DNA from: Balanoglossus misakiensis
Taxonomy: Eukaryota > Animalia > Hemichordata
DNA: 64,000 nt
Reading direction: 5' to 3'
Assembly (NCBI GenBank): GCA_040954595.2
Contig: CM082587.2
Span: forward strand, 10,421,403 to 10,485,402
Shown: positions 9,497 through 43,906 of the stretch, one piece after another
Layout: each line of letters opens with the position of its first letter
How positions within the stretch are numbered: the stretch's first letter is position 1
Made by a program: the position numbers and the translations under genes
The notes under the pieces: generated by a model
Database searches by the model: none
What the model saw: only the letters and a program-made list of their open reading frames with translations
What the model was told of the DNA's origin: nothing

Positions 9497-9528
<32 letters not shown>

Positions 9529-10966: not shown

Positions 10967-10998
<32 letters not shown>

Positions 10999-15588: not shown

Positions 15589-15627
15589 ACACTTTAACAT
15601 ACCAAGAGAACATATTCGACTGCTTAC

Positions 15628-17123
15628 CCAATATAATGTGCTGAGCATTGACAGCTATAACCATCTGCAGTGTTGGTACAGGTACCACCATTCAAACAAG
15701 GCGACATGTACTCGCATATATCAATAACAGAAATAAACGATGTAAACATAAAACCATAATGATCAAATTTGGTCAATATGTTTTTTTTTTGCAAGAAACT
15801 CAAGAAATAGGAAAAGAATATGTAATCAATATATAAGTAAACCCTTCAATTTTTATGCCAAATGTACCTACCTATACAGTCATCCAAACTATTGGCACCT
15901 TCATGCGTTGTACGCAGTCCTGTTGGACATGGGTTGCATTCTCTGGAACCACTCTCATTCTGGTAATAGTGACGGGGACAAAGTACACATGGCTCAAGAC
16001 CAGTGTTGGAATATGAGCCAACTGTGCATTTTTCTGGAAGTTAAATACAAATTGAAATTTTAATATGATGTTGTATCCTGGAAAAGATGAAATGAGGCCA
16101 AAATAAAAAAATATGTGCTGTTCCGATTACCCGACCTACCCTAATTATAACCTGCTGACCCTAAACTTTTTAGAGCTTCGTAAACCCAGAAGTAAAAAAA
16201 AAACATTGTTGTCAAACATACAAAATTTATGAAAATTGCGCAAATCATACGAGAACTATGACGAAATCGCGCACATCACGCAGGACTATGATGTCATTCT
16301 TCTACACTATAGTTTTTTCTGATGTGAAATGCACATTGAGAGCTAAAAAAATCGCAAAATAAAAAAAAATCCTTACCTACCTACCTACCCTATTTCTGAA
16401 AACCATGTAATCGGAACAGCATATACTATTTTTTTGGCCCAATAAAAACTTGGCATTGTAAAATAATCTTCCTACCTTTGCAACTCTCTCCTACAACTGC
16501 TACCCCGTGTGTTGACGTGTCATTTGGGCACAGATGACAATCAGTAGAACCATAATCTGGTTGATAAGATCCTTGCACACATTGTGTACATGGAGCTTTA
16601 CCATCATCTGAGTAATAGCCAGGTTTGCACAACTCTAAAAGTTAAAAAAAGATCACAATTTGACCTTAAACACTATATATTCATAAACTGCATGTACTAT
16701 TTAGTTTTGAATCATCACGTCATAAAAAGATTGAAATCTAGAGAAGTCAATAGCAACACAGTCTTTTTACAATTACATCCAACAGAAGCACCTTGTTTGC
16801 ATGATGTGCGATCTGTAAAATTCAAAGTATTCATGTAATGGCTTTTTTTAAAATCTCGTTTGTACGTGTTACCAAAACCGTATGTGGAATAAAATAAACG
16901 AGTCTGTCAGTCACAGTGCTAGCTCATCAGAGATGATGTGGTATTTGTTATAGACTATTTCTCTTACCAATACAGTCATCTTGACTCTTGCTGTGTTTAT
17001 CGTGTGTACTATAACCTGATGGACAGGTAATGCATGATGTTTGACCAGCGGAATTTTGATAAGATCCAACAGGACAGCTAGCACATTCATCTCCTGTATC
17101 ATAAGTTCCAGCTGTACACGTCA
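15628..17123 (-). CDS. Three Cys-rich GCC/ephrin-receptor-like repeats (16968-17123, 16476-16634, 15872-16033) and an EGF exon (15628-15727)
   Basis: C.SCPVGSYQ...G...C..CP motifs; DICEYMSPCLNGGTCTNTADGYSCQC...YIG. Confidence 0.9.
16095..16440. mobile_element. MITE (Harbinger-like); inverted partial copy at about 20760-21030
   Basis: TIR ggccaaaa..atatgtgctgttccgattac / gtaatcggaacagcatat..ttttggcc. Confidence 0.65.
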
Positions 17124-17435
17124 CTACAATGTAACAGATTAAAAAGACAAAGATGTTTAAAGTGAAGGGGTCATCGCGACACATTTGTTTGTTTATAAAC
17201 ATTATAATGCATCCACAAATCTCTGAAAATAGATAATTCTTAGGATGAATAACAAAGCAGCCAACCGCAGCATAGACTGGGCATGACAGAAACTGAAGAT
17301 CCTAGTAGGTCTTGACGACTGCAGTGGGGTTTGTGCTTGTATTGGAGGACATATTCTCATCAAGGAGGACACCCACGCGGTGGGACAACCTCTTCCCTTT
17401 AACTCATCAAGGCACAGAAGTGACACATATACCAG

Positions 17436-17625
17436 TACAGTAAAAATTGTCTTAACTGAACACCAAATGGACTGAAGAAACTGTTCAGTTTGCAGAGGTG
17501 TTTGGTTTTATAGACTTTCTTTTAACATGGTGTTCTACATGTATGTCGAAGAGACAGGACAATGTGTTTGGTTTAGACAGGTTTCCAGATTCGACAGGGT
17601 TCAGTTTAGACAGGTTTTACTGTAC
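17436..17625. mobile_element. Tc1/mariner-type MITE
   Basis: ta-cagtaaaa...ttttactg-ta termini. Confidence 0.55.
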
Positions 17626-17880
17626 TAATTAAATTATGCATTTTTTCGGAGCAACTGTCTATGAACAATTATATCAGGATAAATTGTGATGATAATGATG
17701 CTGTTTATAAGCTGTTGTGTAAGGTGTATATGCATGTAAGCCTTGGAGATATGTCGAAGCATATGGTACACCAGTATAAGTCACTAGTGGGTTGGGATGA
17801 AAATATTTATAAGTTGACAAGTAATTGACACCATAAACTTAGACTCTTGGTTCAAGGTATATTGGATTGATGATACTTAC

Positions 17881-20365
17881 AACAATAACAGCCACTGAGA
17901 ATCTTTCCAGATGGACAGCAACATCCTGAGAACTCATTAGTTGGGGCTCCTGACAGATTCAATTCTGGACAAGCACCATTTGCCTCGATTTTGATGAGAC
18001 TGTTGAATTGACTGAACTGAGTTGTAATTGCACTCATTATACTATCACCGCAGGTTTGGAGATCTAAACTTGTTGCGTTGTCTGTCTTTGCAAGTAATTT
18101 CATGGCAACTGTTGCATTCACCTACCGGTATGAAAAACACCAAATAGAAAGTTTGGTTTAATGGGTTAAAAGGACAAAATAGCTGTAACTTTTGGCTTTT
18201 TTTCAGTATTTTCTTCCGTGTATCAAACGCTATTTCTTGTTCTACTCCAAACAGCATGTTACTATACCCAGTACTTATCATGTATGCGTGTAACAGCCAT
18301 TGTTATTGTTGACAAAGGAATTCTAGTCTGAAATTAAATTTTGCACAATAACAATGCTGACCATTCACATATATGTTGTGTTGATATTAAGCCAAATGCT
18401 CAACATTTTATGATTCTTCAGGTATTTGAACAAGAAACTGCAGTAGATACACAAAACAAACACACTGAAAACGTAGCAAAAAGATAAAGCTATTATGGAG
18501 CATTTAAAGGGATTATGTTTGATACAATTACAAGACACTGTTTATGTTATTCTACATGTGGATATATAGAGAATCAATGTTTGACCACACACAACTTCCA
18601 TCCTCTTGTAGACGCGACAGTGAAAAAACACGCGAAAAATGAATACCATTCATTCATTTTGGGCGAGTTTTTACTCTCATATCCTACAAACAAGATGGAA
18701 GTTGTGTGTGGTCAAATGATGATTCACTATATATCCACATGTAGAATAACATAAACTGTGTCTTGTATCAAACATAATTAATGGGAAAACGGCAGCGAGC
18801 GAGAGACTTTGTCCCTCCAATAACAAGATAATGCTTCTTAAAAATGACACACCTTGGAGAACCCAACCTTAGGGTAACACATTGTACAATAATGTAACGA
18901 CAGAAATCAAATAAAGGATTACATCAACCTTCTTCTTCAGCATAAAACTGTAAAATTTTCCAGCAGGACAGATAATAATACCTGATTGGAGTCTACTATG
19001 GCCATTGTTGAATAGTCACTTCAACACTGTCTTCAATCGAGTTACACAGGACCGACAACAGTGGTTCAACAGACTGCACAATTCCAAGCAGACTCGACTC
19101 GTAATATGAGATACATTGGTTGGTATCACTTGGAATGGTTATCACAGAGTTGTATACACCTCCCACAGTCAGGCAATAATCTGGAACTTCCTTCTCTGTG
19201 GAAAGATCAATATGGAAGATAATTTAACTTCAGGCCGACTAGTTGAATTGTCAATCGTCAATCCAGTTTTCGCTTTACTAAGCTGGTGAAAAAATCCCAT
19301 TTTTGCTAATCCACTCAAATCTGGACTAGTGCCATCTTCCATGCGGTAATGTAGGTATTGACGGATTATAAAAATGTAGGTATTGACTGATTATAAAAAT
19401 GTAGGTATTGACTGATTATAAAATGATCAGTTTATATAAGGGCACACATAGCAAACTGGAAAACACAAATTCCCTCACATATCAGCAATATACAGAGAAA
19501 ATTTGAACCAACAGTAACACTGAATTAGTTGGTTATTTTGGTTCTTCAAGTTTATTATCTGCATCAGCATTCACATATTATTTTGGGGGCCTAATGAATA
19601 TTGATATGATATCAGTTGAATTTCAATTACGCAAAAATAGATCAGTAGAAGCCCATACACACCAACACAATCAGGTACGTAATTATGGGGTAGCCATGTT
19701 CCACCAATTATGCAGGTGTACATTCCTCCAGGTGAATCAATTTCTTGAATGAAATCATAACCAGCTTGACAGGACAATGCACATGAGAATCCTGAACCCA
19801 GTGGTCCTCCAATGACACGGGTGCAAGTCTTCTGTCCACCTTCTGGTGTAGGTAGTGACCACTCTGGACATGTATCAGCTGAATAACTAAATGAGATGTT
19901 AAAAGGTGAAATGTCTAATGTCTCAAAACAATGCCATATTAACTTCTAAATGTTTAAAGTCTCTGCCACCACTTTTTGCATTATTTTCGAAACTCAACTC
20001 AGTACCAGAAAAACGCTCAAAGCAGCATGCACACAAAAAGTATTATAAAGACAAAAAATCACCACAAACACACAAAAGTATTGAGATTCAAAATTCACCA
20101 AGCGACTAGTGGGCTAGTTTAGCTGAACACTTACGTTGAACAGAAACATCAAATTGACACTGAGCCTGGTTGCCACTGTAATCGGTTGCAGTAACAGTCA
20201 CTGTGATGTAGTTCCTGGTTTCAACTGCAGTTCCATTTGGTGGTTCATATATGACGTCACTGATTCCGTGGTTGTCTACAACAGAGACTGCTGGATATGA
20301 CACATTGTGTTCCACTTCATCAACAAGAATTACGTACGTGTCTGGACAGTCTAGTGGCATGGTAT
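17881..20365 (-). CDS. HYR (20135-20365), sushi (19663-19878) and SEA-like domain (18982-19195, 17881-18121)
   Basis: DCP...V.DNHG...VTVTATDYSGNQAQCQFDV (HYR); CPEWSLPTP..C..C..SCQAGY..C..W..VPDC; KEVPDYC...CPEL...CCCPSG. The 18982-19195 exon is frameshifted. Confidence 0.85.
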
Positions 20366-21039
20366 CTGCAAGCCAAAATATATTTCATAAGATATGAGAC
20401 TGTAATCTGCCAAGTTTGTAACCACAATACTTGCCAGCCATTAAAGCGACATAGTAATCTTGAATTCAGCTGGGAGAAGAACTGTTCTGTAGGTGGCTCC
20501 ATGACAACCCCAATTGCTAAACCAGTTGAACATCGTCCTTTTTCCCAGTGATGTTGACAACCACTCCAATGATGGACCATTTATAAGCTTTGTGATTTCC
20601 ACAAATGAAAGCAGGCAGACAATGCATGAAATCAAATCAAATCAAATCAGAATGAAACACAATCAGAATCAAATTAGAATGAAACACAAACAAACATTAA
20701 AATCCAATTCCAACATTGGTGATTTCATTCAAGAACTCAATCTGGCGGATAAATTGCTAAATTGTGCTGTTCTGATTACATGGTTTTCAAAAATAGGGTA
20801 GGTAGGTAGGTTTTTTTATGTTGCATTTTTTTTATTACTCTGGCCGCCGTAGTGTATAAGAATAACGTCATAATTCTTACGTGATTCTTGCAATTTTCAT
20901 AAATTTTGTATATTTGACATTGTTTTTTATACTTCCGGTTTAGGAAGCTCTAAAATGTTTAGGGTCAGCGGGTTATAATTAGGGTAGGTCGGGTAATTGG
21001 AACAGCACATATTTTTTTATTTTGACCTAATGAACATAC

Positions 21040-22616
21040 CAATACAAACAGGTGCAGTGCCATTCCATTTAGCATTAGTGAGAAATGATGACTGTTCAGA
21101 TGCATCCCTTCTTTTCCTCACAACTTCCACTGCGGCTGCTGTTGAAATAAGAAGAATTTTTTTTCTGTAAGTAATACTTAATTCATGCTTGTAACACACC
21201 GCTCATAGCATGCATTTACCTGATGACCGTGCCTGTTTATGAAATACACATTACAGAGCCACGAATTTAGTCGATAATAGAAGAAAACTGCTGATTCAGC
21301 ATTTTTCACCAATGGTTTGTCTATGGGCAAATTTTTTTTAATGCAATTTATCTCAAAATAGAGCAAGGTGACCCTTATATTTTAAGTGACCAATGAATTT
21401 ATATTTACTGGACTGAGCTATGTAGAAAATTTTGTGACAATGACAATAGAAGAAGTTTGTTTTCTAGCAATTATCAATGTAATCCTATGGGAAAAAGACG
21501 GGTGCGTGCAGTTTTCCGGTTTATGTTCTGCGCGTACATCCTTAAAAGAAAAGAAGAGATATAAGCGCCACTTTAGTGTGAATAAAAATAATGATTTTAT
21601 ACATACTGCATCTGACATTCTGGAAGAGCTCATATCCTTCAGGACAACAGAATGTTGCATCATCTTCTTGAATTGGGTTTGCAGAAGATGATAGTTCTGG
21701 ACAATTGTCTGAACTGTCAATGGCAACCAAAACTGGAAATACACTTGGATGGTTGGTCAGATAAAAGATTAGTTGAAGACCACATCCCGACAATTCTGCA
21801 TTGTCGTATCCAGGGCTCAATGGGTCTATGGGTTCAATCAGTAAGTTCAGCCCCACATCCATTAAAAGCTGCAGGTAATGAAAATACAGTCATAAGCATT
21901 TGTTTTAAAAGATGTTATGTTTAATATGCTTTATTATTATGCATCTGGCACCAAGAACAATAGAATTTAGCGTGTACTAAAAAGCCATACGGAACGGTAC
22001 GTACGGAACGCGTGTTAAATACCCCTTAAGTTTCAAGGCGCCCCAACTCACCGTGTACAGGTATGTACTAGCTGTTATGCGGATGGTTTCAAGACATCCC
22101 CACTCCAACGCACGTAAACAAAAAAGAAAGATGACTGCTCACTGTTTCAGCTGAGCAGTTTACGATCGATTGTATCGACAAAATTAAACATCGCATGGTT
22201 GTCACATTTGCATGAAAATATTCTCCCAATATGCATTTTTTCTTTGGATATGCAATCTGAAGAGCATGTGAGATAAAATGCTATGAAGTGAACAATTTGT
22301 TGAGTGTAATATTCTAGACTCCAGAAAGAGTCTACAAGATTTTCTGCAAGACTGAAAGAGACAGTTAGAGTACCCACCGAATTATCCGATAGCGAGGTGA
22401 GACTGGTGGTGGATAATGCGATATTGATTGTAACCAGACCAGCAAGAGGAACACATGCTCCTGATGGATCTTGAGACAGGAGTTGAGTTAAACCATTAAC
22501 AAGTTGTGTTGTTATTTCTGTACCATAGTAGTTGCCACAGGATTGCTGGTCTGTAATCTGCCCACTACCATTATATGACACACTAAGCTGTGCACAGTAG
22601 TCAGGAACGTCACGGT
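21040..22616 (-). CDS. SEA-like domain copy (22378-22616, 21607-21868), then RKRR furin-type site and C-terminal half of the split sushi (21040-21138)
   Basis: DRDVPDYC...CPEL...CCPEGY; VVRKRRDA...NAKWNGTAPVCI. Confidence 0.75.
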
Positions 22617-23040
22617 CTGCAAAGTAATTATCGAATAATTGTAAATACAGACCCATACAACTTCTATTCTCTTCAGGTCAATTTGTTCAAAGCATAAATG
22701 GGTTCAACTCTTTGTGGTTTATTCTGATTTTAAATTTAACTGTATTATTACTTCATGGTGTGTATGAAAGATACAAGAAAAAAAAATCACTTTTTGAAAT
22801 AAACATTTCTCTGTTAATTATCAAGTTCTGTTAATTATCGAGAATCCCCTAAAAGTATATATTTTCTGAAAGTAAATATAGGAGAACATTTTGGTGTGAC
22901 CATTGTTTACACAACTATCATGTGACAAGCAATTTAAATTAACTTCCAAAAACAAGTTTTCTGGATGTTTTGTTTTAACACTTTGAGACATCACTCAAAT
23001 ACAACACGTTATCAACCAAACTAAGGGTAATATCTCTTAC

Positions 23041-24264
23041 CTGGTAGTTGAGTTGGAGTTGGTAGGGTCGTAAGACCACCTGTTGTGGCTTTCAGAGTTG
23101 TTGCTGGTTTCGTAGTTGGTTTAGTACTGACATCATGATATACTGTATAAATGAAATTGAATGAATACTTTATATTACACACTGGACATGGGTGTCTATA
23201 TGATAAGAGTGGAAGAGTTATTTGACCAACCGTATACAGATCAATTGCACTGAGCATTGTTATTGCCTCATTTGTGACATAGAGTCTGATTCAAACAACG
23301 ATGATGATGGTAACTAACAATGTATAACTGTTTAACTGTTTACATTAGAGGTATTATGAATTTTTTTTTTCAATTGAAATTTTCACTGTACCCGTACATG
23401 AAGTTTCTATCAATAAAGCCAAATTTTCAATGTTTTATTATTCATAGTTTACTTTATCATAATAGGAAGTAAACCTACATTTCTTTGAAAAAAAAGTGAG
23501 GAGTGAATATGTTTTCTCCTTTCTTCCACCCCTCACCCCCTAAAAATAATGGTGTCATCCAGGAGCTAGAGTCGTGTCAACTAAGTAAACAAGATCCATC
23601 CTTACTTTGGAGCTCATAATGCTGAAAAGTGTAGAAATTCGTATACATTCACCTTTTGATGTTAACAGATCTGTCGGTGCCTCAGTTGTATGTTTTCTTG
23701 TTGTTCTTCTTTGGGAAGTGGCAGTTTCATCAGTTATCATTTGTGTTTGCCATTCTGTGGTGCCTTCTACCGTTTGCCAATATTCTGTGGTGCCGTCCAT
23801 TTTATTTGTTGTCAAAAGTGTCTCTGGTGTGGTGGCGTCCATTTTGTTTGTTGTCAACAATTTCTCTGGTGTGGTCCATGACTCTGTTGGCATCACATCA
23901 CTTGCATCGTCATACTCTGAAGTCTGGTCTGCAGGAGTAATATCCACAGATTCTGCTGTTGACATCATTTCTGTTTTTGAGATCGGAGCAGATGTTGTCT
24001 TGTATGTACCCTCACCTTCTGTGCTTGACTGCTGATCAGGCTTTTCAGAACTTGCCTCTACTGTTGTCACGACAACAGGCATGGTTACTGTAACCATAGT
24101 AACTGTTGTGGTTGACTTGCTTTTTCCAGTTGTCACAGCCGGTATATTGTCTGTGTCCAACACAGTTGTCATTCTGGGCGAAGTTATGGCATATCCATCA
24201 GTTGAGATGCTTTTTTCTGTGCCTTCGGTGTAGGGACTAGTTAAATATTCCAGCGTTGTTTCAT
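23041..24264 (-). CDS. Second mucin-like stalk (exons 23653-24264, 23041-23142)
   Basis: Long Thr/Ser/Glu-rich open frames with ag/gt boundaries. Confidence 0.8.
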
Positions 24265-24810
24265 CTGTTGATAAAAATGAACATTACAATTTGAATAATC
24301 TAGAACAAGGAAATCTAATGTTATATTGTTCTCCACTAACATGAACAGTATTGAATCAATGTTCCTGGCAGGAGACAATTTCAAGGTATTCTCATCCCGG
24401 TGTGTGATTCAAATGATATTGTGTTATTATTCTATTGCTTTCTTTAATGCAATTGTTTATGAGGGTGTTGAGATTTCTTATTCAAAATACAGTAAAATAG
24501 GAAATTTCCACGAACGATAAATTTACTGGTGAAAAAAAAGTCGCTTATGGTTTTCAGAGATAACGATGCAGTGAAATACCAGAACGTGAAAATTAATCGC
24601 CACGTAACAGTTGCCACATTTGATATCATGAACATTTCCTCTTGCGAAAATTTTGCATAAGAGTGTACCAGATATTGGTGTGCAAAACACAATATCAGAT
24701 ATCACAGCTAATGTAACAAATTCAGCTACACTCCATTGAAATCATCAGCAACATTGACCTATGTTATACAGTAAACTAATTACATATTGTATAAAATGAA
24801 ACCATCTTAC

Positions 24811-26337
24811 CTTCAAGCGTACTCTCAATTGTTGTAACTATTCCAAAGTCTGGAAGTGTAGAAACTTCAAGCTCATCATCCTCACAATGTCGAAATTGCT
24901 TGGAGGTGTCAATAATCTCATCAAACTCAAAGTCTGTAACCCTGTAGTTAATTTTACCAGACACCGAATAGACCTTGACATTGAGAGGGGCTTGTATATC
25001 ACCAGAACCAATGGGTGGTTCAAATAAGTTATCACTGAGTCTGTCTAGAGTAATCCAGGGACCAGTTGTGTGGACTTCCACAGTGGTGACAGGGTAACGA
25101 TGATCCAATATTAATAAGCTGAATGATGCAGAAATGCTCTCTGCAAACTAAATAAACAAATCAATCAATCAATATGCAGTACACTAAAAAGATGAACAAC
25201 ACAGTCCCTGGTTGGTCCTAATACTTTGAAATTTAGAGCAAGACTTACTGTAAAATGGGTTATTTTCGCGAGCATAAATTTTCGCAAAATACGCAAGATC
25301 TAAAAGAGACGTGAAAATAAATGTCGTGTGAAATGTTTTTCAGATTTAACAATGCAGTTAGTGAAATACAAGAACGCCAAAATTAATCCTCGCGTAACAG
25401 TTGCCTCTTTTGATATTGCGAAAATTTCCTGGCGTGAAAATTTCCCGTTTTACAGTATTTGCAACAAATCATTGTCAATGACCTAGTCCCCACTGGATCT
25501 TCCCTTGTCCAAATCAGTTGAGACTGGTTTGATTTCCAGGAGATCTAAACTTCCAGTAAAGAAACAGATGAATACTCTTGACAATTTAAACTTCAATATT
25601 ACAAATACTTAAAAAAATGGCTAGGGAGGTTTCAAACAAGTTTGCCAAGATGTGACAATTAAAGACAAGGGTATATAAATTAGTTAATAATTGTGTTGTT
25701 TCACAAACCTTGAACTTGATAGAGACATCCTCAGGACAGGCAACAACTGAGTAGGATACAAGAAGAGATGAAGGACTTTCACCATCTGACAAGATGTTGT
25801 AAGCATCCTGACTTAGAACCAGACCATCTTCATCACTCATGCAGTACGGGTACATGCACATGTCTGTTACCCGGACAACTACAGATACATCATTTGAACC
25901 AATCACGTTCAGGCATTGCCCGCAAACCTGCAATTACACAAACCAAAAAACTCCTTTAGACAACACTGGAAATACTACAGTATGCAGTTTTTTTCAAGTA
26001 CATTTAGTGATTAAATCAATCTTGGGTGAGAAATTTAAAAAAATACAGTGCAACACATAAAACAAGACAAAATAAAATCATTCATAACAATGTTACAAAT
26101 CACAATGAGAAATTGGAGACAATCTGGTCAGTATTGACACTGGAGCAAAACATTTACCGGTACATAGACTTTCAAGAACTAACTTTATACTTACATGTGA
26201 ATCTTGAAAATTGGCCATACCAGCAACCATACTTGTGTAGAATGTTCCAAATGAACAGGTACCATCAGTTGGTGTCTCAATGTACTTCTCACAAGTTGCG
26301 TTTACAAAAGTCTCAAAGGTTCCACAATCTCTACTGA
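24811..26337 (-). CDS. Expansin-like module: DPBB domain plus CBM63-like domain (exons 26195-26337, 25709-25927, 24811-25147)
   Basis: GTCSFG..SMVAGM..CGQCLNVIG..SVVVRVTDMC..GLVLSQDAYNIL..VSYSVVACP..IKFK|..DHRYPVTTVEV..GPWITLDR..DNLF..G..PLNVKV..SG..DTSKQF, colinear with microbial EXLX-type expansins. Confidence 0.85.
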
Positions 26338-27033
26338 CTGTAAAATCAACAACACAATCAGGATATTCTTTGCTGCAAGAAGAGTTAATATCCTAACATG
26401 GGTTTGTGTGGTACATTTTCTAATCTGGTGAAATGTGTTTGTGTGTAAGCTTTTATCATTTATTTACAGGTATGGGACCTTGTACAGTGGTGATATACCA
26501 TCTACAATGAAGACCAATTGATGATGTACAGAAGAGAAATTTCCTGATTTGTGCTGCTTTCTGATACTGAAACACATATCGACTAGCCATGTTCGGATAA
26601 CAGCATACGTTTGTGTCCCCTCGGGAATGCAAATTACCCCCAAAACAATCTGTTTCCATCGGCCTTCAGCCTCTAGAAACAGACTGTTCTGGGTTGACTC
26701 ACAGTCCCTTAGGGAAACAAATGTATGCTGTTGCCCTCACTGCCAGTCAATATGCACAGTTTATCGGTACACACACACATTCAGCAGAAGGCATAATATT
26801 GTTCAGTAATTGCAATGTATATTACTATATATGTGACAATGGGGCAAGACTTGACTAGCGCTATGCTATGTTTCTTGCTCCATATTGCCAATGTAAAAAA
26901 TTAGATATACTGGTATACGGTATTAAGTATTTACCATTTCTCTGCCACAAAATATATTCCTTTCTTAAATTGTGGCAATAAAAGGACAAATACTGATATG
27001 AATACGAATTATACGAATACACAGTATAATTAC

Positions 27034-28090
27034 CTGTTGATACATCATGAGAAGGTGTCACTGGTTTTGTTGTTGATATTTTAGTTGAAAGTGGTGCACT
27101 AGTAGTTTCAGATGTTGTAAATTCTTTATCTGAATCTGTCGTTGGTTTTCTTTCAGTCACAGTGATTGCCTGCGTTGATGGCGCCTCATAACCTGCATAT
27201 GGAAATCAAGTCATTCTGCATTAAAATATGTGAGATTCCATAGATCTCACTAATGATTATTTAATATCAATTATTTAATATAACTATATGATAAATAACT
27301 TGACTGGAATGGAATTTGGATTTTATTGCTACATTTTGCTACACAACCTATTACTGATGTACACACAGAACGTAAACTTGTAAACTGCGCAAATTCGTGC
27401 ACATTTGTCTCTTCGCATGGGATTAGATTGATATAAACTCACTACTGTCATTTTCATGACAATTTAGCTCAGTTAAATGAAAATAAATTCATTGGTCAAA
27501 TAAAATTGTATGGTCACCACAGTCTATTCAGAGATAAATATCGTTAAATGTTTTTGGGTGAAGAAATGCTGACTCAGCTGTTTGTTTGTTTTTCAACTAC
27601 ACAAGGCCATGACTAAATTCAAGCATGGTGACCCCTGTATTATACAGCTTTTCATTATGCTAACAAATGAGAAACCAAAAATCCACAATTAAAAGAAATG
27701 AGATACTTTCACTTCCACTGAGAGGACATCTGTAAAGTAAACTTGTCATATTGTTTTCAGATATTCAGTGGATGTTTGTACTTGACGTACCTGTTGCATC
27801 TCTTGTTTGAGCATCAGTGTGTACTCTTGCCGTCGTGGTTACCAAATCATCTGTGTGTACTTTTGTCGCCGTGGTTGCCACATCATCTGTGTGTACTTTT
27901 GCCGTTGTGGTTACCATGCCATCTGTCTGTGCTCTCTTGGTGGTTCTCATAACATCTGTGTCTGCAGCTGCTGTGGAGATTTTCATCCGCAATGTGGTCA
28001 CTTCTTCCTCTTCTGTTGCCGCTCTATCAGTTCCATCCATTTCTGTCGTCCCAAGCTCTGCAGTTGACATGTCTGTGACCGTTTCCGTTT
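27034..28090 (-). CDS. Thr/Ser-rich mucin-like exons (27791-28090, 27034-27192)
   Basis: Open T-rich frames with 33-bp coding repeats (TTAKVHTDD..), phase 1-1. Confidence 0.8.
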
Positions 28091-28299
28091 CTATGACAAT
28101 GGAGGCAATAGAGGTTATGCTGATTGAATTCTGTTTGTCAAGTTTCACTTCAACATTCAAATAGCTTTTAAAGCCTCTCTGTTGTTTTGGAAGCGGGCAT
28201 TCTGAACCATTTCTCCATATATCACACTACATGAACATAGAAGTTATCACGGTACTGTTTCAGCACACCACGATGTTTATAACAACAGTATATACACAC

Positions 28300-31200
28300 C
28301 AGTAGTTGTAGTAGAAGGTGTTGTTGGCAACACAGTCACAACATCTCCTTCACACATCAAAGGGTTTGGATGGCTTGGTGTGAATCCATAGTCACAACTG
28401 AATGACACTATAGAACCAATGTCGAAATCATTGCCATGTCTCTGACCGTTGACTGGTGTACCAGGATCTTGACATTCTCCTGAGGTCAAGAAGCAAAGTA
28501 TCTTATCAATATTAAATCATCAACTCAGACAGAAGTCATTCCTTACAAAAACATTCTATATACATCATTCTACAGAATTCATTAGCCTTTTGAATTTCTA
28601 TATAAGTTTAAATAATTTCTATGGACATCTATATATTTGTATGTAGTTTTCGAAGTTGCTTAAAATGTTTTTCGGAAATAACGATGCAGTGAAATACAAG
28701 AAAGTGAAAAAGTAGTAGTCGCAGTGTAACAGTCGCCTTTTTTGATATTGCGAAAATGTCTGGCCCAAAAATTCCCCATTTTACACTGTATTCAAACAAC
28801 ACATTGTGTGTGAATGTCATGAATTTCATCAGAGTATAACTATTATCAAACAGAAGTGATTGCTTCTCTGAAAGAAATATTCTTTTCTACGTTACCCTGA
28901 GCAACACATCTTGGTCTGGTGCCATTCCATGTTCCATCTTCAGTGCAATATCTCCTGGTGTTACCAAGTGCTTCATATGCCATGTTACACTGGAGTGTAG
29001 CAACACTATCATACCAAGTGCCATCACTATTCCCATGAGCCATCTTCAATCGCAGTCAACAAACCACAGTCAACACCTAGAAATAATAATAGTGAGTTCT
29101 TATATAGCGCACATATTTTCTTTGAAGTATTGAAGCCTGTTTCTATTGAATTCTATAGAAATGATAGAATCTATAGAATGACAATTCAGAGTTTTGCCGT
29201 GGTGATCTTCGGTACAATATGCATTAAAGTTATGTAGCACTCTTTGATCAACAGTTGAAATTACAGCATGAGCTTGGAATCTTCCACGAGTGCATCTGAA
29301 GAAGGGGACTACATGTTCCCGAAAGCTCATGCTGTAGTTTCAACTGTTGATCAAAGAGTGTTACATAACTTTAATGCGTATTGCAATCTATAGAATGCAA
29401 AAGAATTCTAAGGAATATAAGGTATAGCATTATTCATTCCTGTTACTTACGTTGACAGACAGGAGGAGAGGAATTCCATCGGTAATCACCATCTTGATTG
29501 CTGTAGGTACACACTCTGACATGGCTACCATATAAGTTGTATCCAATGTCACAACTATAGGTCACTTCACTCTGATAGTTGTAGTTGGGATCATTGACCT
29601 CGTAGCTGCCATGATCAATACTCTCTGGTTCACTGCAGACAGCAGCTGTAGAAAATACACGTAGAGTTGAGTTGAAGGAAGAGCCTGGGATAAATCTGTA
29701 ATCACTTTTTAAGGGACAAAGTCTCTCTCTCGCTGCCCTTTTTCCATTAATTATATTTAATACAAGACACCGTTTGTGTTATTCTACATGTGGATATGTA
29801 GTGAATCAACGTTCAACCACACACAACTTCCATACGCCAAATTCTATTGTTCTCGATGTCAGATGTATAATAATATCAAGGTTTTCTGATTAAAAAAAAA
29901 AATATTGACTTACGTGTGCAAGTTGGAAAGTCCGCATCATACTGGCCTTCCACTGTACACAACAGAGTGGACTGTCCATTCAGTTGAAAACCCTCCAAAC
30001 AATAGAATGTAATGGTGCTATTGAACTCCACCAGAATATCACCAGTTTCCTCTATGTTCCAGACTAGGGATCCTTCACGTGGATTTGGAAGTGAAAAATT
30101 CAGCAATTTTTGGGAGAAAAAAAATCTGTGAAATAATTAGTTGAACATTTCCTTCTACAAAACAGTTCAGCTGATATTTTAGAGAAAACAGATGAACATT
30201 TCCAGGAAATGACTGTTTTTAGGTTGTGAATGAACTTAAAAGATAAATTATGATAAAGTTGTGTCAAGGTGATGGCAACACTTATGTCTGTTGAAGAAAA
30301 TTTAAAATTACAAGGAAATTCTGAAAATTTATCCAGATAGTTTGGAATGTGTTAAATGTGAATAGTGACTTGAAGTTACGTTGTATGTGACTGGTTATGT
30401 CTCACCTTTGCATGCTGTTCCATTCACATCCGGTTCAAATCCCACCAGACATGCACACTGATAGTCACCATCTCTATTTTCACAGACTTGATTGATTCCA
30501 CATGGTGCCACCAATGTACTACATTCATTGATATCTGAAATGCTATTCATCAAGATATGATCAAAATCCCAGAGGTCCAAGGGGAAAATTCGGACCAACA
30601 AGTTTAGCTGGGTATTAGACCAACGGGAAATTTTCGCAAACAGTAAATTTTTACGCTAGAGAGCCAAAAAAGACGTAGTGAAAATAAAAATTCGCTTAAA
30701 AATGTTTTTCAGTGATGACAATGCAGTGAAATACGAGAACATGAAACTTAATTGTCTCGTAACAGTTTCTGCTTTTTATATCGCGAAAATTTCCGGTCGC
30801 AAAAATTTCCTGTAGCGATAAAGGGCACTTATATGAGGATATTAAAACTCAGGGGGTGGGGGTGAGGGGTGGGGGAATTGTGCAGTCACGCACTGGTCGA
30901 ACAATTGGAGGTTTTAGAATAATTAATTATCCAAAGATTAGTGGGTGGTCAAACTAATGGAGCAGTCGAATTACTGGAGTGATTACAATAACTCAGGCCA
31001 AAAAATGAAATGTTTCTGGTCAGCGCGCGGGTCACTTGAATAACAGCGCGTCACCCCCATTTTTTTCCTGGTTTGTGGTGGCGGCCACGGCAAACTCAAA
31101 CTGCTTCAACTAGATATAAATCACAGGACACTTTGGGGCGTGTAATCAATGACTGCATGAACAGTGTACATGTGACTATATTGATAAAAACTATAAAACT

Positions 31201-33861
31201 GACGGCCTTCCTCCCTTGAGGGAAATTTTTATTTTTAAATTTGCGTCCCCCCACCAGTTTTTAAAGAAGGGTCTGACCAGAAACATTTCCTTTTTTGGCC
31301 TAATAAGCAGACAACCACATGAAGACGAATCATGATGTGAACTTACCAATGCATGATGGTATTGCATCATTCCACTGTAAATCTGATTGACAAGTCAGGT
31401 AATCAGCACCATTTAATTCATAGCCAGCATCGCAATAGAATGTGATGTTGCTGCCCATATAATATGGTCCACTATCTGGGACAGCTTGTAAATGTTGGTC
31501 TGTTATGAGTATGTCACTGCAGTTTCATCCTGCAAGGAAAAAAAAATAAAACATCTTTATGGATTATGTGGATTCAGACTTGGTTGTGGTATACCGGTAT
31601 GTATCAGGTACCTGTATTGTGAAACAACTTTAACCTTTTCACCCCAAGTTCCCACTATAAAAGTCCAGATACCATAGACTCCTATTATCGACTGAATTCA
31701 TGGCTCTGTATTTCAAAAACAAGCACGGTGACCCGTATATTTTATTACTGATTTTCATTATACATACAAAGGCGAATCCAAAAATCAACAATTAAAAGAA
31801 ATGACCATACTTTCAATTTTAGTGAACGTACATGTCCTTAAATGACTTACGTTGACAGTATCCTGGATCTCCAATCCAAGATCCATCTTCACCACATGTA
31901 GAGACAGTGTAGCCAGTCAGACTGTAGCCAGATGGACATGAGTAGGCAATGGTTGTTCCAAAAACCAATGAATCACCATTAACAATTTCATAAGATAAGT
32001 AGTTGTCTACATTCGGTGGTGGACACTCACGAGCTGTTTGGGTAAGATGAACAGATAACATCACAAGCGTGTTACTACTAGGAAAAAAGTTTAAAGGGAC
32101 ATTACATGTAGCTACAGTAACTTGTAATTGGCTTTATTTTAAGTACTGCAAAATGGGCTATTTTTCGCGAGCAAAACATTTCAGCGAAATACGCGAGAGC
32201 CAAAGAACATGAAAATAAAAAGTCGCGTAAAATGTTTTTCAGAGATAACAATGCAGTTAGTGATATATGAAAACGCGAAAATTAATCCTCGCATAACAGT
32301 TGCCTCTTTCGATATTGCGAAAATTTCCTGTTGCGAAAATAACCTGTTTTAGAGTATTTTTTGTTCTCTGTACCAAATGCAATGTTTTGTTCTACTCCAA
32401 ACAGTAGGCCAATATACCCTGTAAAATCCGTCTCCTACGTGTGCACTACAATGACAGTTTAATTGTTTTCAAAAATATCAACTTACGCTCGCATTGGGGC
32501 ACAAGCGGACCCCAGACACCATCTGCTTGGCATTCCAATGAAGTCACATTATTTATAAACTGATGGCCCTCAATGCATTGATAATAAGCAATTCCACCAT
32601 ACACTGTACTGGTAACATTGGTAAGAATTCCACTGCTGCACTCAGCGGGTCCACCACATGTTATTCCTAAAAAATAAACAACAAATTAGTGTCATTCAAG
32701 TTGTTACTAACAATAGATTCAAGGGACAAATTAAGTCTATCTCGCTGCCCCTTTTTCATTAATCATCTTTGATACAAGACACCATGGTATAGTGAAACAA
32801 CATTCAACCACACACAAATTCCATCCCATTTATAGACACAAGAGTGAAAAACTCGCCAAAATGAATAATCGGTCTCTACCATTTACTCATTTTGGCGAGA
32901 TTTTTACTCTCATTACTCAACAGTATGGAAGTTGTGTGTGGTCGAACGTTGATTCACTATAAATGTATACCCACATGTAGAATAACATAAACGGTGTCTT
33001 GTATCAAACATAATTCATGGAAAAGGGCAGTGAGTGAGACTTTGTCGCTTTAAATGTTCATAAAATATAAGTTAGATTGAATCATATCTTCACATTAATA
33101 ATTCCCATCACAGAAATTTTATAGCTACACACAACATGACACCTGTACGAGAAGTCATTAATTCCTACATGAGTTACAGTTCACATTGAGACGACTTTAG
33201 TTTTCTCCTAAACTTGACTGAACTGTGGAACAGGAAATGTAGGCTTGTTTACGCACTGGAAATCAACAGGCAATGGGTTTCTAAAAATGTTTTTTTTTTC
33301 TTCTGAAAGAGTGACCTCAAAGCTACCAAATTATGTAGAAATTAGCTGGACCCCTTCTACTGGATTCGGTCCTACCAATTCTTTACTATCAATCACGTGA
33401 TCTGGCCATGTGACCCACGGTGTTGTCATTTACAGATGACGGGCAAACAATATTTCGGCATCCAGTAAAAGTTTTTCCGAGTATGTTTTTACTTTAGAAC
33501 TACCAGACACGTAACATGTATCAGGTATGGTGCCTCATCAGCCTCATGGCGTTTCATCTGCACTGTCTTTGTCTGCACCAAGTTGTTGATGTTGCCCGTC
33601 ATCTGGAAATTTGAATGCCAACGGAACTGCGTCAGACGTTATTTGATATCGAAGAATAGTGCACTATTGCCTTACTTTGACATGCTGGTAACTTGAGAGG
33701 ATCCTCTTCATTCCAGTTTCCACCAAAGAGACAAGTGAGAGAAGAGACAGTACCAGACACTTTCTGATAACCATCCAAGCATTGGAATGAGACAGTGACA
33801 TCATAGCTTCTATCATCTTTACTGGTCACCACGCCCTCACCAATCACAATTTCGGGACAGT
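28300..33861 (-). CDS. Sushi/CCP repeats and one calcium-binding EGF (exons 33676-33861, 32487-32666, 31851-32033, 31347-31529, 30406-30534, 29914-~30091, 29451-29645, 28896-29076, 28300-28479)
   Basis: C..P....G...F.C..GY.L.G....C...G.W....P.C pattern in phase 1-1 exons; DINEC...CENRDGDYQCAC..GF for the EGF. Confidence 0.9.
29181..29384 (+). mobile_element. Short Penelope-like insertion with inverted arms
   Basis: 13-bp TSD aatctatagaatg (29168-29180 and 29385-29397); about 60-bp inverted arms (about 29216-29276 vs 29323-29383). Confidence 0.7.
29292..29332 (+). ncRNA. Minimal type I hammerhead ribozyme
   Basis: GCAU-CUGAAGAA-GGGGAC(UACAU)GUUCCC-GAAA-GC-UC-AUGC: stem I GCAU/AUGC, 6-bp stem II, both core boxes, short palindromic stem III. 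Confidence 0.75.
30995..31301. mobile_element. MITE (Harbinger-like)
   Basis: TIR aggccaaaaaa.gaaatgtttctggtcag / ctgaccagaaacatttccttttttggcct. Confidence 0.7.
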
Positions 33862-35030
33862 CTGTCAGAACAAGGATCACAATGATAAGAATGCATGCAG
33901 ACAAATACTTTGACTCATAAATGTGAGGGGTCGTCGTGCCGCATTTGTATGTTTATTATCCAGTGTTTCCTCTGGGTTTCAAAATCTTCTAGCAATTTGG
34001 CTAAAAGACATGAAAATTTACTAGCCAAACTTGACTTTGCATTAGCCAAACCAATGCTGCCGCAACAGCTGATTCGGAGGGGGGGGGGGTGTCACAAAAT
34101 TAACAGAATCAGGGCTTCAAATTAAGCTTTGACTGATTGCCTTGGGCAACTAAATATTGATGCACTGTATGTTTAACTTATGTTGGTGGTTCTTGATGAC
34201 AAGTTCACAAGTATTTTGTAAGGAGACTTAGGGTGTTTGCCTGCTGTTGGTCCTTGTTCGTCTTCATGTTTTTGTTTGTTTTGTTTTTTTGAAAATTGAC
34301 CCAACAGGCAAATAGAGAATGTCTGAGTTTGATAGTGAATATTGAAGTGTATTTATTTTTTTCCTTCTCTTTATATTGAGAGATGAACTTGATATATACG
34401 CTCATAATTGAGACAAGAGATATTGTGGATACTGTTGCTGGTTGATTTTCAATAAAACAATATAAAAAAAAAAACTTTAAAAAAAATATTGATGCAGGGC
34501 ATGTAAATTGTCAACCTAACTTGCACGTTTGGGCAGCCAAAAAATTACGTACTCCACTATGCACGGCCAGCTTTTGACGGGCAAGCCACTACACTAGCGT
34601 TTCTAAACAGAGAAACTTCCATAACAACCTGTACACTTGACGCGTTCCAGTCAAGGCAGACCTAAAATGTATCAATTTGTAAGCATAACCCATTCAAAAT
34701 ATGCAAATTGGGAAAAGACGCACATGCATTCTTTGCGTCCCCAGAGACACACACAGGAAATCAAGCGAGTGCGACCACTAGCTGGAAGAGCTGAATTCAA
34801 TGCATTGCCTTACGATGTTCATGATATACAGGGGGTGATGATCAATGAACAGAACAACGGTCCACTTTCACGCGTTGTAGTGCAGTGAACTCGCGCTGAT
34901 CATGGCACAAGAAACGACGATGTTAGATAGCAGTGCTTCGCAAGTTTGGCTAATTTGTATGAAAATCGTCTTGCCAAACACAATTTTTTACTCGCATTTG
35001 CGATTTGGCGAGCGGGTAGCGGAAACACTG

Positions 35031-35776
35031 ATTATCATATGCCTATATTCACGTGCCCACGTAAAGTCTATGGGGAAAAGCGCCCTCACATCCGTGCAGT
35101 TTTTTTGCTTATCACGCCCCGGCCCGGTGACCATATTTGGAAGACGCGTTCAATATCCGGATCTAGTTTTGTGTTTATTGCGCGAGATTCGAAAGTTGTC
35201 ATTGCTACGTTCGGAATTAAATTTTTCTGGTGCGGTGTCAGTGACTAGTGCACTTGCAGTGTGTGTATGTCCTATGCCGCTACCGAATCCCATCATCTTC
35301 CGTAATCGCTGCATGTTGTAGAGCTTTATTTGGAAATATGAATAGTCAAATTGATGATTTGATTTGATTAATGTGTGACTGTCGGCGTCGATCGTCGCAA
35401 AGAAAAAATGTTTTGCTCGCGCTCGGCTCTGTGAGTTCGAGCGCGTCTATATCTCACGTGCAATAGAATATAAACAAATGACATCGTGCATATCAATCCG
35501 CAAGAACTGGAGGAATGCGCCTCTATGCTCCGGGATAGATCATTCCAAAACGATAGATAAACACATAATATTTACATTCCAAAATATTACAGAATGTGTA
35601 TTTTATTAGTTTCTTGTAGATTATCGTTCAATAAGGCATATGATAAAACCTTTACGGCCCTGATACGGGTTTTGCGGCCATCGGTCGTACGACGATTCCC
35701 GCCCTCCCTGCGGTCAGGCGCTTCCGCCGTACGACCTCGGGCCACAAAACCCGTATCAGGGCCGTAAAGATTATAA
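35031..35776. mobile_element. Non-autonomous long-hairpin element (putative Crypton-type)
   Basis: Short IR ttatcatatgcc (35032-35043) / ggcatatgataa (35635-35646) followed by a palindrome at 35650-35769. Confidence 0.55.
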
Positions 35777-35952
35777 ACATTACAATTCATCCACAAGTCC
35801 CTGAAATTAGATCATTCTTAGAATGAACGAAGCATATTCAAAAATCTTTCCACCTTTCACTTAATGACTCTAAATCATAAGGAATAAAGGGAGTGCGTGT
35901 TTCTAAGAATTCTGTAACATCCTTTTCTGAAATGTTAGTAAGTTATGTATAC

Positions 35953-38900
35953 CTGGTGAAAATGACGCCCTGAATCCTTTAGCTGGTCGTGTTCTACTAC
36001 TCCTGAACACAACCGAAAAGTGTCCAATGTCTGTACGGCAATCGGGTGGTGGTAATGTGCCATCAATGACTTCATCAGAATTGCCACTCCATGGACCAAT
36101 AATGACATCATCATCACTCTCAGTACCATTGTATACCTTCAGAAACAAAGACAAATTAAGCATGCATTGTAAATACCGTAAAACGGGAAATCTTCACAAC
36201 AGGAAATTTTCGCGATATCAAAGGTGGCTACTGTTACACAACAATTAATTTTCACATTGTCATATTTTACTGCATAGTTATCTCCGAAAAAAACATTTTA
36301 TACGACTCTTTATTTTCATGTTTTTTGGCTCTCACGTAGTTTGCGAAAAATTATCATTCACGAAAATGTCCCGTTTTACAGTATTCAATCCTTGTTGCAT
36401 TTCCTGCTGTAACAGCTACTCAAATACTGTAAAACGGGAAATTTTCGCAAATGATAAATTTTCGTGAACTATGCGAGAGCCATCAAAACGTATAAAATAA
36501 AAAGTAGCATAAAAATGTTTTTCAGGGATAATGATGCAGTGAAATACAAGAACGCGAAAATTTCATGTTGCAAAAGTTTACCGTTTTACAGTATATATGT
36601 GTTTAATTGAATTTCAAAATTGTGTTCCAAAGTTGTATAGTTTGAAGTAATGTCTGCCAAAATTGTCAAACTAAAATCACTGCAAAATAATATGACAAAA
36701 TTTTGTCAGCATTAAAGGGACAAAGTCTCTCTCTCTCTGCCCTTTTTCCATTAATTATGTTTGATACAAGACACTGTTTATGTTATTCTACCTGTGGATA
36801 TATAGATACATTTGTAATCAACCTTCGACCACAAACAACTTCCATCCCATTTGTAGGGTATGAGAGTAAAAACTCGCCCAAAATGAATAAACAGTAATAA
36901 CCGATTATTCATTTTGGCGAGTTTTTCACTCTTGTGTCTACAAGTGGGATGGAAGTTGTATGTGGTTGAACGTTCATTCACTACATATCCACATGTAGAA
37001 TAACACAAACGGTGTCTTGTATCAACATAATTAATGGAAAAAGGGCAGCGGGAGAGAGACTTTGTCCCTTTAACATGGCTGACTCCTGATCATATCTGAT
37101 ACTTACAATGATGTAATCAACATCTGTGTTCCTCTCTAATCCAAAGTTGTCATCAAAGATAAGAGTTAATGGTCTTCCAGTTGGTTCCTTGATTACCCAG
37201 CTACACATAACATCATCAGGGTAAGTGCTAACATCATAGCCTGGTGACTGAATCGTACCAAAACTACGCAGAATTTCAATTCCCTGGCAACCTTTGAAGA
37301 AAAAATACCAAACAAGAAATAATTAATTCAATCCACAGGTTTGGTGTAATCCTGGCTGCCTTTTATTTCGTGCTAGGGGATCAAATCACATAATAATTGC
37401 CTTCTGGATAAAAAGTCGTAAGCGATAGAAGAAATGACTGTTAACTGTATTTTATGACTTCCTTAGGTCAAACATTTCTGTCGTTATACATGTAGTTAGC
37501 AAATTAAACTCATTTAACTTTTTTCACATTTTGTTATTTTTTCTGTTGAAGGGTCTCTCTCCAGCTGCCCCTTTTCCATTAATTATGTTTGATACAAGAC
37601 ACTGGTTATGTTAAAGCCCCAGTATTTCTCGTGTGTATCCATTTTTCATCATCGAAAAATGCCCGTTTTTCCCGTACATTCATCATGGAATACTACATAA
37701 TGAAGATAGAAGAAAGGTTTGGGCTACGTGCAAGCTGTAAATATTGCCCGTAACACTTGAAATGATGCGCGGGTTTGTTTACAACGGAAATGTTGTACAT
37801 GTCGATCAGCAAACGTGCCACTTTGACATTTGATGGTCAGACCATTTTCGGATTTGATCTGGTTCCATCGACTGATTTCTCCCATAAAGTTATCTTCCCA
37901 AAATTTCGCCGAATTAGTGCGCATTTCTTCGCTGAGTCGCTTGATTTGGGGCGACCAAACCTCTTCCGCATAGATTCACATTTGAGTGCGCATGCGCAGT
38001 AGTCACGTGTGTCAACAGAGCCTGACTTTCTGTCCGGACAGAAAGTCATTCTTCACTCGTTATATTGTAAATTGTATGAGTTTATTAGCAGAGCTGGGGA
38101 TGATGACTGTTCGATTCAGTATCAATTATCATCTACTTTTAGAAATTATAGATGCCGTTTCAAACAAAATTTTGCCCCTACGAGAAATACTGAGGCTTTA
38201 ATGTAAATGTGGATATATAGTTAATCAATGATCAACCACACAAAACTTCCATCCCACTTGTATGATATGAGAGTAAAAACTCGCCCAAAATGAATAAATG
38301 GTAAAGAACGATTATTCATTTTGGCGAGTTTTTTCACTCTCCTGTCTATAAGAGGGATGGAAGTTGTGTGTGGTTGAACGTTCATTCACTATATATCCAC
38401 ATGTAGAATAACAAACAGTGTCTTGTATCAAATATAATTAATGGAAAAAAATGCAGCGAGAGAGAGACTTTGTCCCTTTAAAAAGTTCCATAATGACCCA
38501 GTATCAGATTAGCTTATAAACCTTCAGAAAGAATGGCAAAGGAAGATATATTTGTGATCCTTACAATTCCCACTGGGTTGAAATTCTTTGGGAAGGATTT
38601 TAAGTGATTTAAAGGGACAAAGTTTCTCTCTCTCGCTGCCCTTTTTCCATTAACTATGTTTGATACAAGACACTGTTTATGTTATTCTACATGTGGATAT
38701 ATAGTGAATGAACATTCAACCACGCACAACTTCCATCCCGTTTGTAGGATATGAGAGTAAAAATCTTGCCAAAATGAATAAACGGTAGAGACCGATTTTT
38801 CATTTTGGCGAGTTTTTTCACTCTTATGTCTACAAGTGGGATGGAAGTTGTGTGTGGTTGAATGTTCATTCACTATATATCCACATGTAGAATAACATAA

Positions 38901-41900: not shown

Positions 41901-42160
41901 AACTTTTTAATACAGGTGTCCAGTTTATTTCATAGAGGTTCCTTTAAAATTGTGTTTGTACGACGAATGGATGGGAAAAGGTGTTCTGTATAGGCAGGTT
42001 TCCAGATTAGACAAGTTTTACTGTACCTCAAAATTTATTCTGGATGTTGCAGGTCCCTGGATTGTCCAAATACATTCTTGTAGAATGTAATAATTATCAT
42101 CTGGGTATCCAGTGCTGTGAAAGGTCCCTGAGACACCAGTTTCCAAACCACCACATGTTC
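35953..42160 (-). CDS. Three CUB domains (exons 42027-42160, 40433-40634, 40054-40205, 39047-39248, 37107-37291, 35953-36136)
   Basis: CGG...HSTGYP...ECIWTI; FLSD...GFEASW; VDFKSD...RGFHAHY; CSWVI...GFRASF. In-frame TAA at 40072-40074. Confidence 0.9.
36173..36593. mobile_element. Two adjacent copies of a ~200 bp TA-flanked MITE family (others near 24490, 25246, 28650, 30620, 32143, 42471)
   Basis: ta-c(t/c)gtaaaacgggaaattttcgc ... gcgaaaatttcccgttttacag-ta. Confidence 0.7.
36715..37069. mobile_element. TTAA-flanked MITE family, Kolobok-like (others near 18505, 29711, 32720, 37550-38480, 38612, 39363)
   Basis: ttaa-agggacaaagtctctctc ... gagagactttgtccct-ttaa with long internal inverted arms. 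Confidence 0.7.
37615..38197. mobile_element. Kolobok-like non-autonomous element nested in a MITE
   Basis: TTAA TSD; TIR agcc(c/t)cagtatttctcgt. Confidence 0.75.
40854..41680 (+). mobile_element. 5'-truncated L1/Tx1-clade LINE (zf-RVT C-terminus)
   Basis: FQFKLLHNILYTN...CDLC...ESIDHLFHSC...LW; aataaa at 41649; poly(A) tail; 18-bp TSD atcttctcattgaaatat (40836-40853, 41681-41698). Confidence 0.92.
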
Positions 42161-42942
42161 CTGAACATCATCAAAATAAAAAGAAAGGGTTTATTTGTGT
42201 GATGAATGGTCATAAAGCTTCAGCTCTTCAAGTTGAAGAAATTTCATTGATGATAAAATTACTTCACCAACAGTGAGTATCCAATGTACATGTATAAAAC
42301 AAATTTTATATTAGTATAAATCAAATGTAAAATTTTGAAACAACATTTATCACACCCGAAAATTCCAAGAACAGCATATTATTATTCTCTAAGCTCAAAC
42401 TATCAGTGTGAAAGATGCCAGATTCTTAAAATACTTGACCCAGTTTTGTTTCTGATTTATAATTATGAAATACTGTAAAACAGGAAATTTTTCGTGATAT
42501 CAAAAGTGACAACTTTTATGCGATGATTAATTTTCAAATTCTCATTTTTCACTGCATTGTTATCTTCGAAAAACATTTTTACACAACTTGTTTATTTTCG
42601 TGTTTTTTGGCTCTCGCATAGTTCGTGAAATATTTATAGCTCGCGAAAATTTCCTGTTTTACAGTACGAAATTCTTTGAGGATCAGAATTTCTGCTGACA
42701 GTTCAAAAGTAGTCTGTAGTTGCAAAGGAGATGTACAAATAATTATGGTCTGGTAGTTTGAGGTTGGCACATATCAGTTGTCATGCATATTTACAAGATT
42801 CTTTTGTATAATGACTTCAAGCCAAAACTACACTATACCACACATTTAGGAAACTTGGTCTCATCACCTGGGCCCACTTTGCAATGATGTTGAGGTGAGC
42901 GTAGAGAATATGATTGTTTCAGACCACTTGCCAAAAACATAC

Positions 42943-43047
42943 CTGCACATCCAATCTCATCAGAGAAATCACCATCACCACAGTCAACTGTACCATCACA
43001 AACCCAGTCAGGATTTATACAATTACCATTGGAGCATCGAAAGTCAC
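42943..43047 (-). CDS. LDL-receptor class A exon
   Basis: [35 protein letters not shown], flanked by ag/gt. Confidence 0.9.
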
Positions 43048-43818: not shown

Positions 43819-43906
43819 AGTGTAGGGAAGTGACCACAGCAGTGTGAGAAAAGTAAAGACCTGATGCTAGTAAGGGCAGATTCTAGTTGATTTGAATCAG
43901 ACTTAC

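Follow-up and report, generated by a model that had tools for sequence, protein, structure and literature searches.

The window (the whole 64,000-nt stretch of Balanoglossus misakiensis DNA analysed here) covers the front part of a large host gene, in a setting of animal genomic DNA with spliceosomal introns. The traced exons encode, in this order, a lectin-like start, LDLa, three CUB domains, eight sushi domains, EGF and a mucin-expansin loop, and then HYR, sushi, three ephrin-receptor-like repeats and EGF (Table 1). The lectin-like start, like the membrane span of the homologs, was recognised by eye. The best relatives were P0010 (Ptychodera flava XP_070567428.1, 4527 aa) and P0001 (Saccoglossus kowalevskii XP_077862127.1, 4825 aa), both exon-by-exon collinear with the window gene and both with uninterrupted reading frames. 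Outside 15600-44700 the window yielded no additional exons of the host gene; this includes a satellite-like array at about 3200-14050 (238-bp units, blocks about 1.6 kb apart, AAG runs).

Table 1. Position of the host gene, its lesions and the parts of the expansin-like module in the window
Feature	Position	Strand	Remarks
Host gene as traced	15627..44674	(-)	collinear with P0001 and P0010
In-frame stop	40072..40074	(-)	second CUB domain
In-frame stop	31525..31527	(-)	start of fourth sushi exon
Gap	30090..30406	(-)	place of the homologs' second EGF exon (P0010 865-940); fifth sushi exon apparently cut at its start
Seventh sushi exon	28896..29076	(-)	181 nt, frameshift
Eighth sushi, N-terminal part	28300..28479	(-)	interrupted by the mucin-expansin cassette
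Mucin-like exon, Thr/Ser-rich	about 27790-28100	(-)	upstream of the module
Mucin-like exon, Thr/Ser-rich	27034..27192	(-)	directly upstream of the module
Module exon A	26195..26337	(-)	phase 1 in, phase 0 out; N-terminal bracket Cys, beta-1, first conserved Cys, Phe-Tyr pair
N-terminal bracket Cys (RDCG)	26326-26324	(-)	exon A
Glu at the Thr12 position	26290-26288	(-)	exon A, beta-1
Phe-Tyr pair	26242-26237	(-)	exon A
Module exon B	25709..25927	(-)	phase 0/0; rest of DPBB domain D1; CGQC, CxxxxC loop
Asp71, kept	25864-25862	(-)	exon B
New Asp	25828-25826	(-)	exon B
Val for Asp82	25819-25817	(-)	exon B
Module exon C	24811..25147	(-)	phase 0 in, phase 1 out; CBM63-like D2; HRYP kept
Ala/Ser for W125/W126	25129-25124	(-)	exon C
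Asp for Y157	25033-25031	(-)	exon C
C-terminal bracket Cys (QFRHC)	24886-24884	(-)	exon C
Two mucin-like exons, Thr/Ser-rich	24264-23653, 23142-23041	(-)	downstream of the module
Furin-type RKRR exon	21039..21138 (approximate)	(-)	with C-terminal part of split sushi (WNGTAPVC)
Frameshifted exon	18982..19195	(-)	214 nt, frameshift close to the exon's 3' end

By its domain list the host gene resembles Uninflatable; no arthropod Uif was among the 49 homolog matches. Drosophila Uif, as described in part of PMC3340373, has a lectin-like start, 3 CUB, 8 sushi, HYR, many EGF and one membrane span. P0010, which has a similar make-up to Uif and SVEP1-like proteins, contains three CUB, eight sushi, two HYR and 11 EGF stretches and a single membrane span. 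Uif carries two FA58C carbohydrate-binding domains; no F5/8 type C domain was found in P0001 or P0010 at E 0.01, and both of these proteins have mucin and expansin modules. The mucin-expansin block ends in a furin-type RKRR, after which the closing WNGTAPVC of the eighth sushi follows. This sushi is whole in three gastropod homologs (P0042, P0048 and P0052), whereas bivalve homologs carry a mucin insert with basic sites in it, without an expansin; the insert is thus shared by hemichordate and bivalve homologs and not by the three gastropod ones. In P0001, P0038, P0044 and P0046 the insert exceeds 1,000 residues and ends in furin-type basic sites. The expansin module is missing from all seven mollusc homologs of the host gene.

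In the window the gene is present as a disabled copy or allele, which inherited the altered state of the module. Its 29 modelled exons hold two stops and two frameshifts, and one exon is missing. An additional candidate lesion, exon y, was rejected since homologs show the same split sushi. A contig assembled from X1/X2 (DNA-like runs from one sample, depth about 3.5, covering neither the sushi-7 frameshift nor the missing-exon gap) reads Leu at the fourth-sushi stop, as in P0010, and differs by ~7% in that exon. Because this stop is open in the contig, an open allele or duplicate of the window gene probably exists. Run X21, possibly from another organism, contributed no reads. The region upstream of the traced gene start (45872-56841) contains ORFs for THAP (45872-46351 +), a DDE_Tnp_4 transposase (54788-55663 +) and a YqaJ-like recombinase (55945-56841 -), by which the initial exons of the host gene may have been displaced. 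Other mobile elements are a LINE-type fragment with zf-RVT inside the intron that splits the first CUB (40713-41525, +) and an LTR-retrotransposon pol ORF (61143-63872, -), which stays open for 909 aa and includes domains for RT, RNase H and integrase.

Structure and motifs of the expansin-like module

The module spans 26337-24884 and therefore extends beyond the interval of the original prediction (24980..25830). With the acceptor that ends at 25148, its three exons give one reading frame free of stops. Both borders of the module are phase-1 introns, and the two internal introns are phase 0. A hidden exon in the B-C intron (25550-25483), proposed for an apparent phase clash, was discarded because this acceptor gives a join that matches the homologs, and the stretch DINSS...VDFT, considered as part of exon A, turned out to be intron.

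The NCBIfam model NF041144 (expansin_EXLX1) matched exon B (E 3e-7) and exon C (E 5.6e-6), and PDB 2bh0 matched exon C (E 0.009), so the resemblance is not due to chance. Exon A alone gave no match to NF041144, and Pfam DPBB_1 stayed below its cutoff on exon B (E 0.005). In P0010, NF041144 scored 131 bits over two stretches. A structural model of Ptychodera module 1 (pLDDT 79.8, pTM 0.76) kept the two-domain fold, with TM values of 0.73-0.78 to EXLX structures and 0.78 to EXLX1 3d30; the model was built from a 17-row alignment that includes true expansins, so this fold match is not independent. On the NF041144 matches and this alignment-biased model, the module, with DPBB followed by CBM63, belongs to the EXLX fold family.

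It could be argued that the expansin exons were joined to the host by mistake in the gene models, being in truth contamination or a separate gene nested within it. An alternative Saccoglossus model, P0009, indeed omits the whole mucin-expansin block, and the expansin exons may be skippable or hard to model. However, the module occupies the same position in three species, has two internal spliceosomal introns and phase-1 borders that match the flanking exons, lacks a signal peptide of its own, and is included in all three Ptychodera isoforms among those listed. We consider an artefact of this kind scarcely credible.

We then compared the module with microbial EXLX proteins (Bacillus subtilis EXLX1/YoaJ 2bh0 and 3d30, Clavibacter 4jcw, Talaromyces 7wvr and the NF041144 family), using EXLX1 residue numbers derived from alignments to PDB 2bh0. 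The order of DPBB and CBM63, the HxYP and QF motifs, Asp71 and the predicted fold (TM 0.76-0.78) are common to both. In contrast to the microbial proteins, the embedded modules lack the Thr12/Thr14 motif, Asp82, W125, W126 and Y157, and they are intron-split and lie inside an animal membrane protein of 4,500-4,800 aa. According to PMC5072189 and PMC12779228, Asp82 is required for activity and W125, W126 and Y157 form the cellulose-binding surface. The original prediction, that LVLS replaces LDLS and that the aromatic platform is gone, was borne out: Val stands at Asp82, SISASF places Ala/Ser at W125/W126, and SDNLF places Asp at Y157. The W125/W126 loop of the window module is one residue shorter than in its closest homologs, and the W125 column holds Ala or a gap depending on the alignment; whichever alignment is used, it holds no aromatic. 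The predicted bracket of cysteines, in RDCG and QFRHC, is present as well.

Conservation and origin of the altered module

Since the window copy is broken, the hallmark residues might have been lost by pseudogene decay after it was disabled. The two stops, two frameshifts and missing exon speak for this, and so does a ninth Cys in the window module, absent from the homologs and located at a small-residue position. We therefore turned to the two uninterrupted homologs, a comparison named beforehand as one that could overturn the prediction. P0010 contains two embedded modules and P0001 three, of which m2 and m3 are near copies; with the window this makes six modules in three species. Position 82 reads V, V, A, V, V and V, and no module has an aromatic at 125, 126 or 157. 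Thus the Asp and the aromatics are absent from the intact homologs too, and the same replacements, often by the same residues (Val82, Ser/Ala126, Asn/Asp157), occur in uninterrupted reading frames of two other species. In addition, X1/X2 contigs over exons B and C show no change at the hallmark codons (among 40 of 61 differences listed), and the sushi-4 stop is missing from another X1/X2 contig, as mentioned above.

Levels of identity point the same way. Against Ptychodera module 1 the window module reaches 62% identity (exon A alone, 62% to P0010 1615-1664), and between the window and P0010 the flanking folded exons have about 55-77% and the mucin exon 25%; judged by its folded exons, the window is likely closer to Ptychodera than to Saccoglossus. 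Between Ptychodera and Saccoglossus, lineages that separated >370 Myr ago according to part of PMC4729200, the module retains 48-49% identity, sushi domains 47-53% and CUB 64%. The module is, by these alignments, as conserved as the neighbouring sushi and flanking folded domains. Because homologs with intact frames share the losses, and because conservation equals that of the neighbours, the loss is not pseudogene drift. Decay, which the original prediction had offered as an alternative, thus fails on the five modules of the two uninterrupted homologs, and we regard it as very improbable. The proposal that the module is not a cellulose-loosening protein is upheld in the sense that it appears non-canonical, the hallmark residues being absent from six of six embedded modules.

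We then looked at where the embedded modules come from. Their closest relatives are free tandem expansins of hemichordates (P0002, P0003, P0004, P0006 and P0007; Ptychodera XP_070533744.1 and Saccoglossus APU50764.1, XP_006825173.1 and XP_006812521.1), one of which, APU50764.1, is already named 'expansin-yoaj protein-like protein 170' in GenBank. They likewise have tandem modules with the same Cys pattern, but are short secreted or singly anchored proteins. Among the free modules the hallmark residues form a gradient, with Asp82 kept in two of seven and W126 in four of seven. The near-identical Saccoglossus proteins P0006 and P0007 read DINLS and DIDLS, respectively, at the Asp82 position; the change seen in DINLS is one that inactivates EXLX1, and a natural replacement of Asp82 is known in one bacterial expansin, both according to a portion of PMC5072189. 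P0004 (XP_006812521.1, Saccoglossus), which has a mucin stalk and probably spans the membrane, carries two altered modules with neither Asp82 nor the aromatics (82 is Thr, 157 is Arg); it is sister to the embedded clade.

The alignment and tree comprised 20 rows, 13 from hemichordates and seven from bacteria, the latter all of one phylum; L008 (partial), P0005 (an unrelated repeat protein) and the near copies of P0006 (P0003, P0008 and P0007 module 1) were left out. In the tree rooted on the bacterial rows, the embedded modules fall within the free hemichordate expansins: intact free modules come first, partly altered ones follow, and P0004 and the embedded clade stand last (98/96, 99/98). The six embedded modules form one clade (support 97/90), which suggests one old loss and not six events. 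Probably, then, the hallmark residues were lost in a single old event that was followed by long constraint. Since the outgroup is a single bacterial phylum, the tree shows neither the donor nor horizontal transfer itself. The nearest Atlas clusters to the module include fungal and bacterial ones. The module is likely microbe-derived.

A sample of 401 genomes of the G001 phylum contained seven with full EXLX genes (L002-L008), most of these genes coding for a pair of terminal Cys; genome G146 has three copies, two of them adjacent. The EXLX proteins of this Bacteroidota phylum (L002-L007) share with the embedded modules the terminal Cys bracket (five of seven rows), the CxxC loop and the GxC/CG cysteines, but keep Asp82, WW and Tyr157 in all seven rows. 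DNA-pattern scans for bacterial relatives returned 0/329, 1/77 and 0/594. A profile of the 20 modules, run against 74 proteins, matched no non-hemichordate, the seven mollusc homologs of the host gene included, and a search for exon B homologs among longer proteins gave 71 candidates, none at E 0.01. A region search with P0001 module 3 recovered only itself among 793 candidates although P0010 exists; such searches therefore miss true relatives, and absence from other phyla is weak evidence.

The cysteine bracket had been read as a sign of repurposing. However, every one of the 20 aligned modules has the N-terminal Cys, and 17 of them, all seven free hemichordate modules among them, have the C-terminal QFxxC Cys. 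The five bacterial EXLX rows that carry the bracket all keep Asp82, WW and Tyr157. The bracket is thus common to motif-intact free hemichordate and bacterial expansins and, being inherited, carries no information on repurposing. By elimination among the cysteines, the N- and C-terminal ones likely pair with each other.

Possible roles of the module

All in all, it seems likely that the module had been reused as a binding module long before the window gene copy broke. We think it reasonably probable that the module is an old pseudo-expansin of hemichordates which has no loosening function and serves in binding or cross-linking at the cell surface (glycocalyx) or in mucus. In such a scheme a free surface-tethered expansin would have entered the mucin stretch within the eighth sushi by shuffling, and the loosening site and cellulose platform would have been lost, probably once. 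Four disulfides, the inherited N-to-C bracket among them, would stabilise the module between unstructured mucin segments, and the giant Uninflatable-like surface protein would present it on a loop predicted to be O-glycosylated; after cleavage at RKRR, the split sushi would keep this loop tied to the membrane part.

The residues of D1 suggest where binding could take place. Asp71 is kept in six of six embedded modules, each of which also has a new Asp three residues before position 82. Thr12 is replaced in all six, by Glu in five and by Val in one. A new F/Y-Y pair places an aromatic at window position 32 in six of six modules and at position 33 in five of six, and the disulfide loop beside position 82 is lengthened. 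Taken together, the D1 groove looks remodelled by the change of Thr12 to Glu, the new Asp and the new aromatic pair. With Glu at 12, Asp71, the new Asp and the F/Y-Y pair, it might accommodate either a protein or a glycan that is flexible, perhaps together with a cation, and its target would not be crystalline cellulose. The embedded modules are acidic (pI 4.05-4.63); motif-intact Saccoglossus modules have pI 4.13-4.16, so this property is not specific to the embedded ones.

A purely structural role, in which the module would be a protease-resistant, disulfide-locked spacer or a self-association unit in the mucin loop with no glycan site, is unlikely but deserves serious thought. CysD domains of gel-forming mucins offer a parallel. 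One to three copies of the module lie within Thr-rich stretches, Cys, Val, Gly and Pro account for many of the 37 invariant positions, and every known glycan contact save Asp71 is lost. D1 and D2 are equally conserved among the embedded modules (33-60% and 32-65% identity, respectively), and since D1 is not the more conserved of the two, a site in D1 only is not favoured. On the other side, the clade has conserved polar or aromatic residues of its own (Glu at position 12, the new Asp, F/Y-Y, Ser158, Lys120 and Tyr188), which a mere spacer would not need.

Alternatively, the active site could have been rebuilt by moving the carboxylate from 82 to its partner position 12, so that D1 would still distort or cleave a glycan, for example chitin, peptidoglycan or a polysaccharide of algae. 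In EXLX1, GH45 and lytic transglycosylases a hydrogen bond links Thr12 and Asp82, as stated in passages of PMC5072189, and the replacing Glu lies on the predicted beta-1 strand; the constancy of Asp71 fits this idea as well. Nevertheless, Ptychodera module 2 has Val at 12 and Ala at 82, as well as lacking one aromatic of the new pair, and the D2 platform that would deliver the substrate is gone. A rebuilt site is, in our judgement, doubtful. As a broader scenario, a bacterial expansin might have been domesticated as a phase-1 shuffling module, its carboxylate shifted from 82 to 12 and new aromatics gained, so that a deuterostome surface receptor arose which detects or modifies glycans of microbes or algae in the feeding mucus; we hold this to be unlikely.

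With respect to earlier work, a literature search found no description of an expansin-receptor fusion or of hemichordate expansins, although the animal table of an expansin survey may list Saccoglossus. That survey calls the few animal expansin genes 'empirically unconfirmed' as real versus contamination (bioRxiv 10.1101/637728). The hemichordate genome paper does not mention expansins in its main text or in two supplement files, and the main text of an arthropod HGT-chimera survey mentions neither expansins nor hemichordates (PMC13389597). That three hemichordates have an intron-split module at one and the same place of a receptor gene speaks strongly for animal expansins being real. Within the family, modules range naturally from intact to fully altered, which provides a panel for studying the expansin fold without Asp82 and the aromatics. 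It also represents a deuterostome case of a microbe-type domain turned into a shuffled extracellular module. Microbe-animal gene chimeras are already known, as part of PMC13389597 documents: the arthropod HGT-chimeras likewise join an animal gene to a microbe-like fragment under constraint, but their carbohydrate-related examples, as far as covered there, keep catalytic residues, whereas the embedded expansin module lost them.
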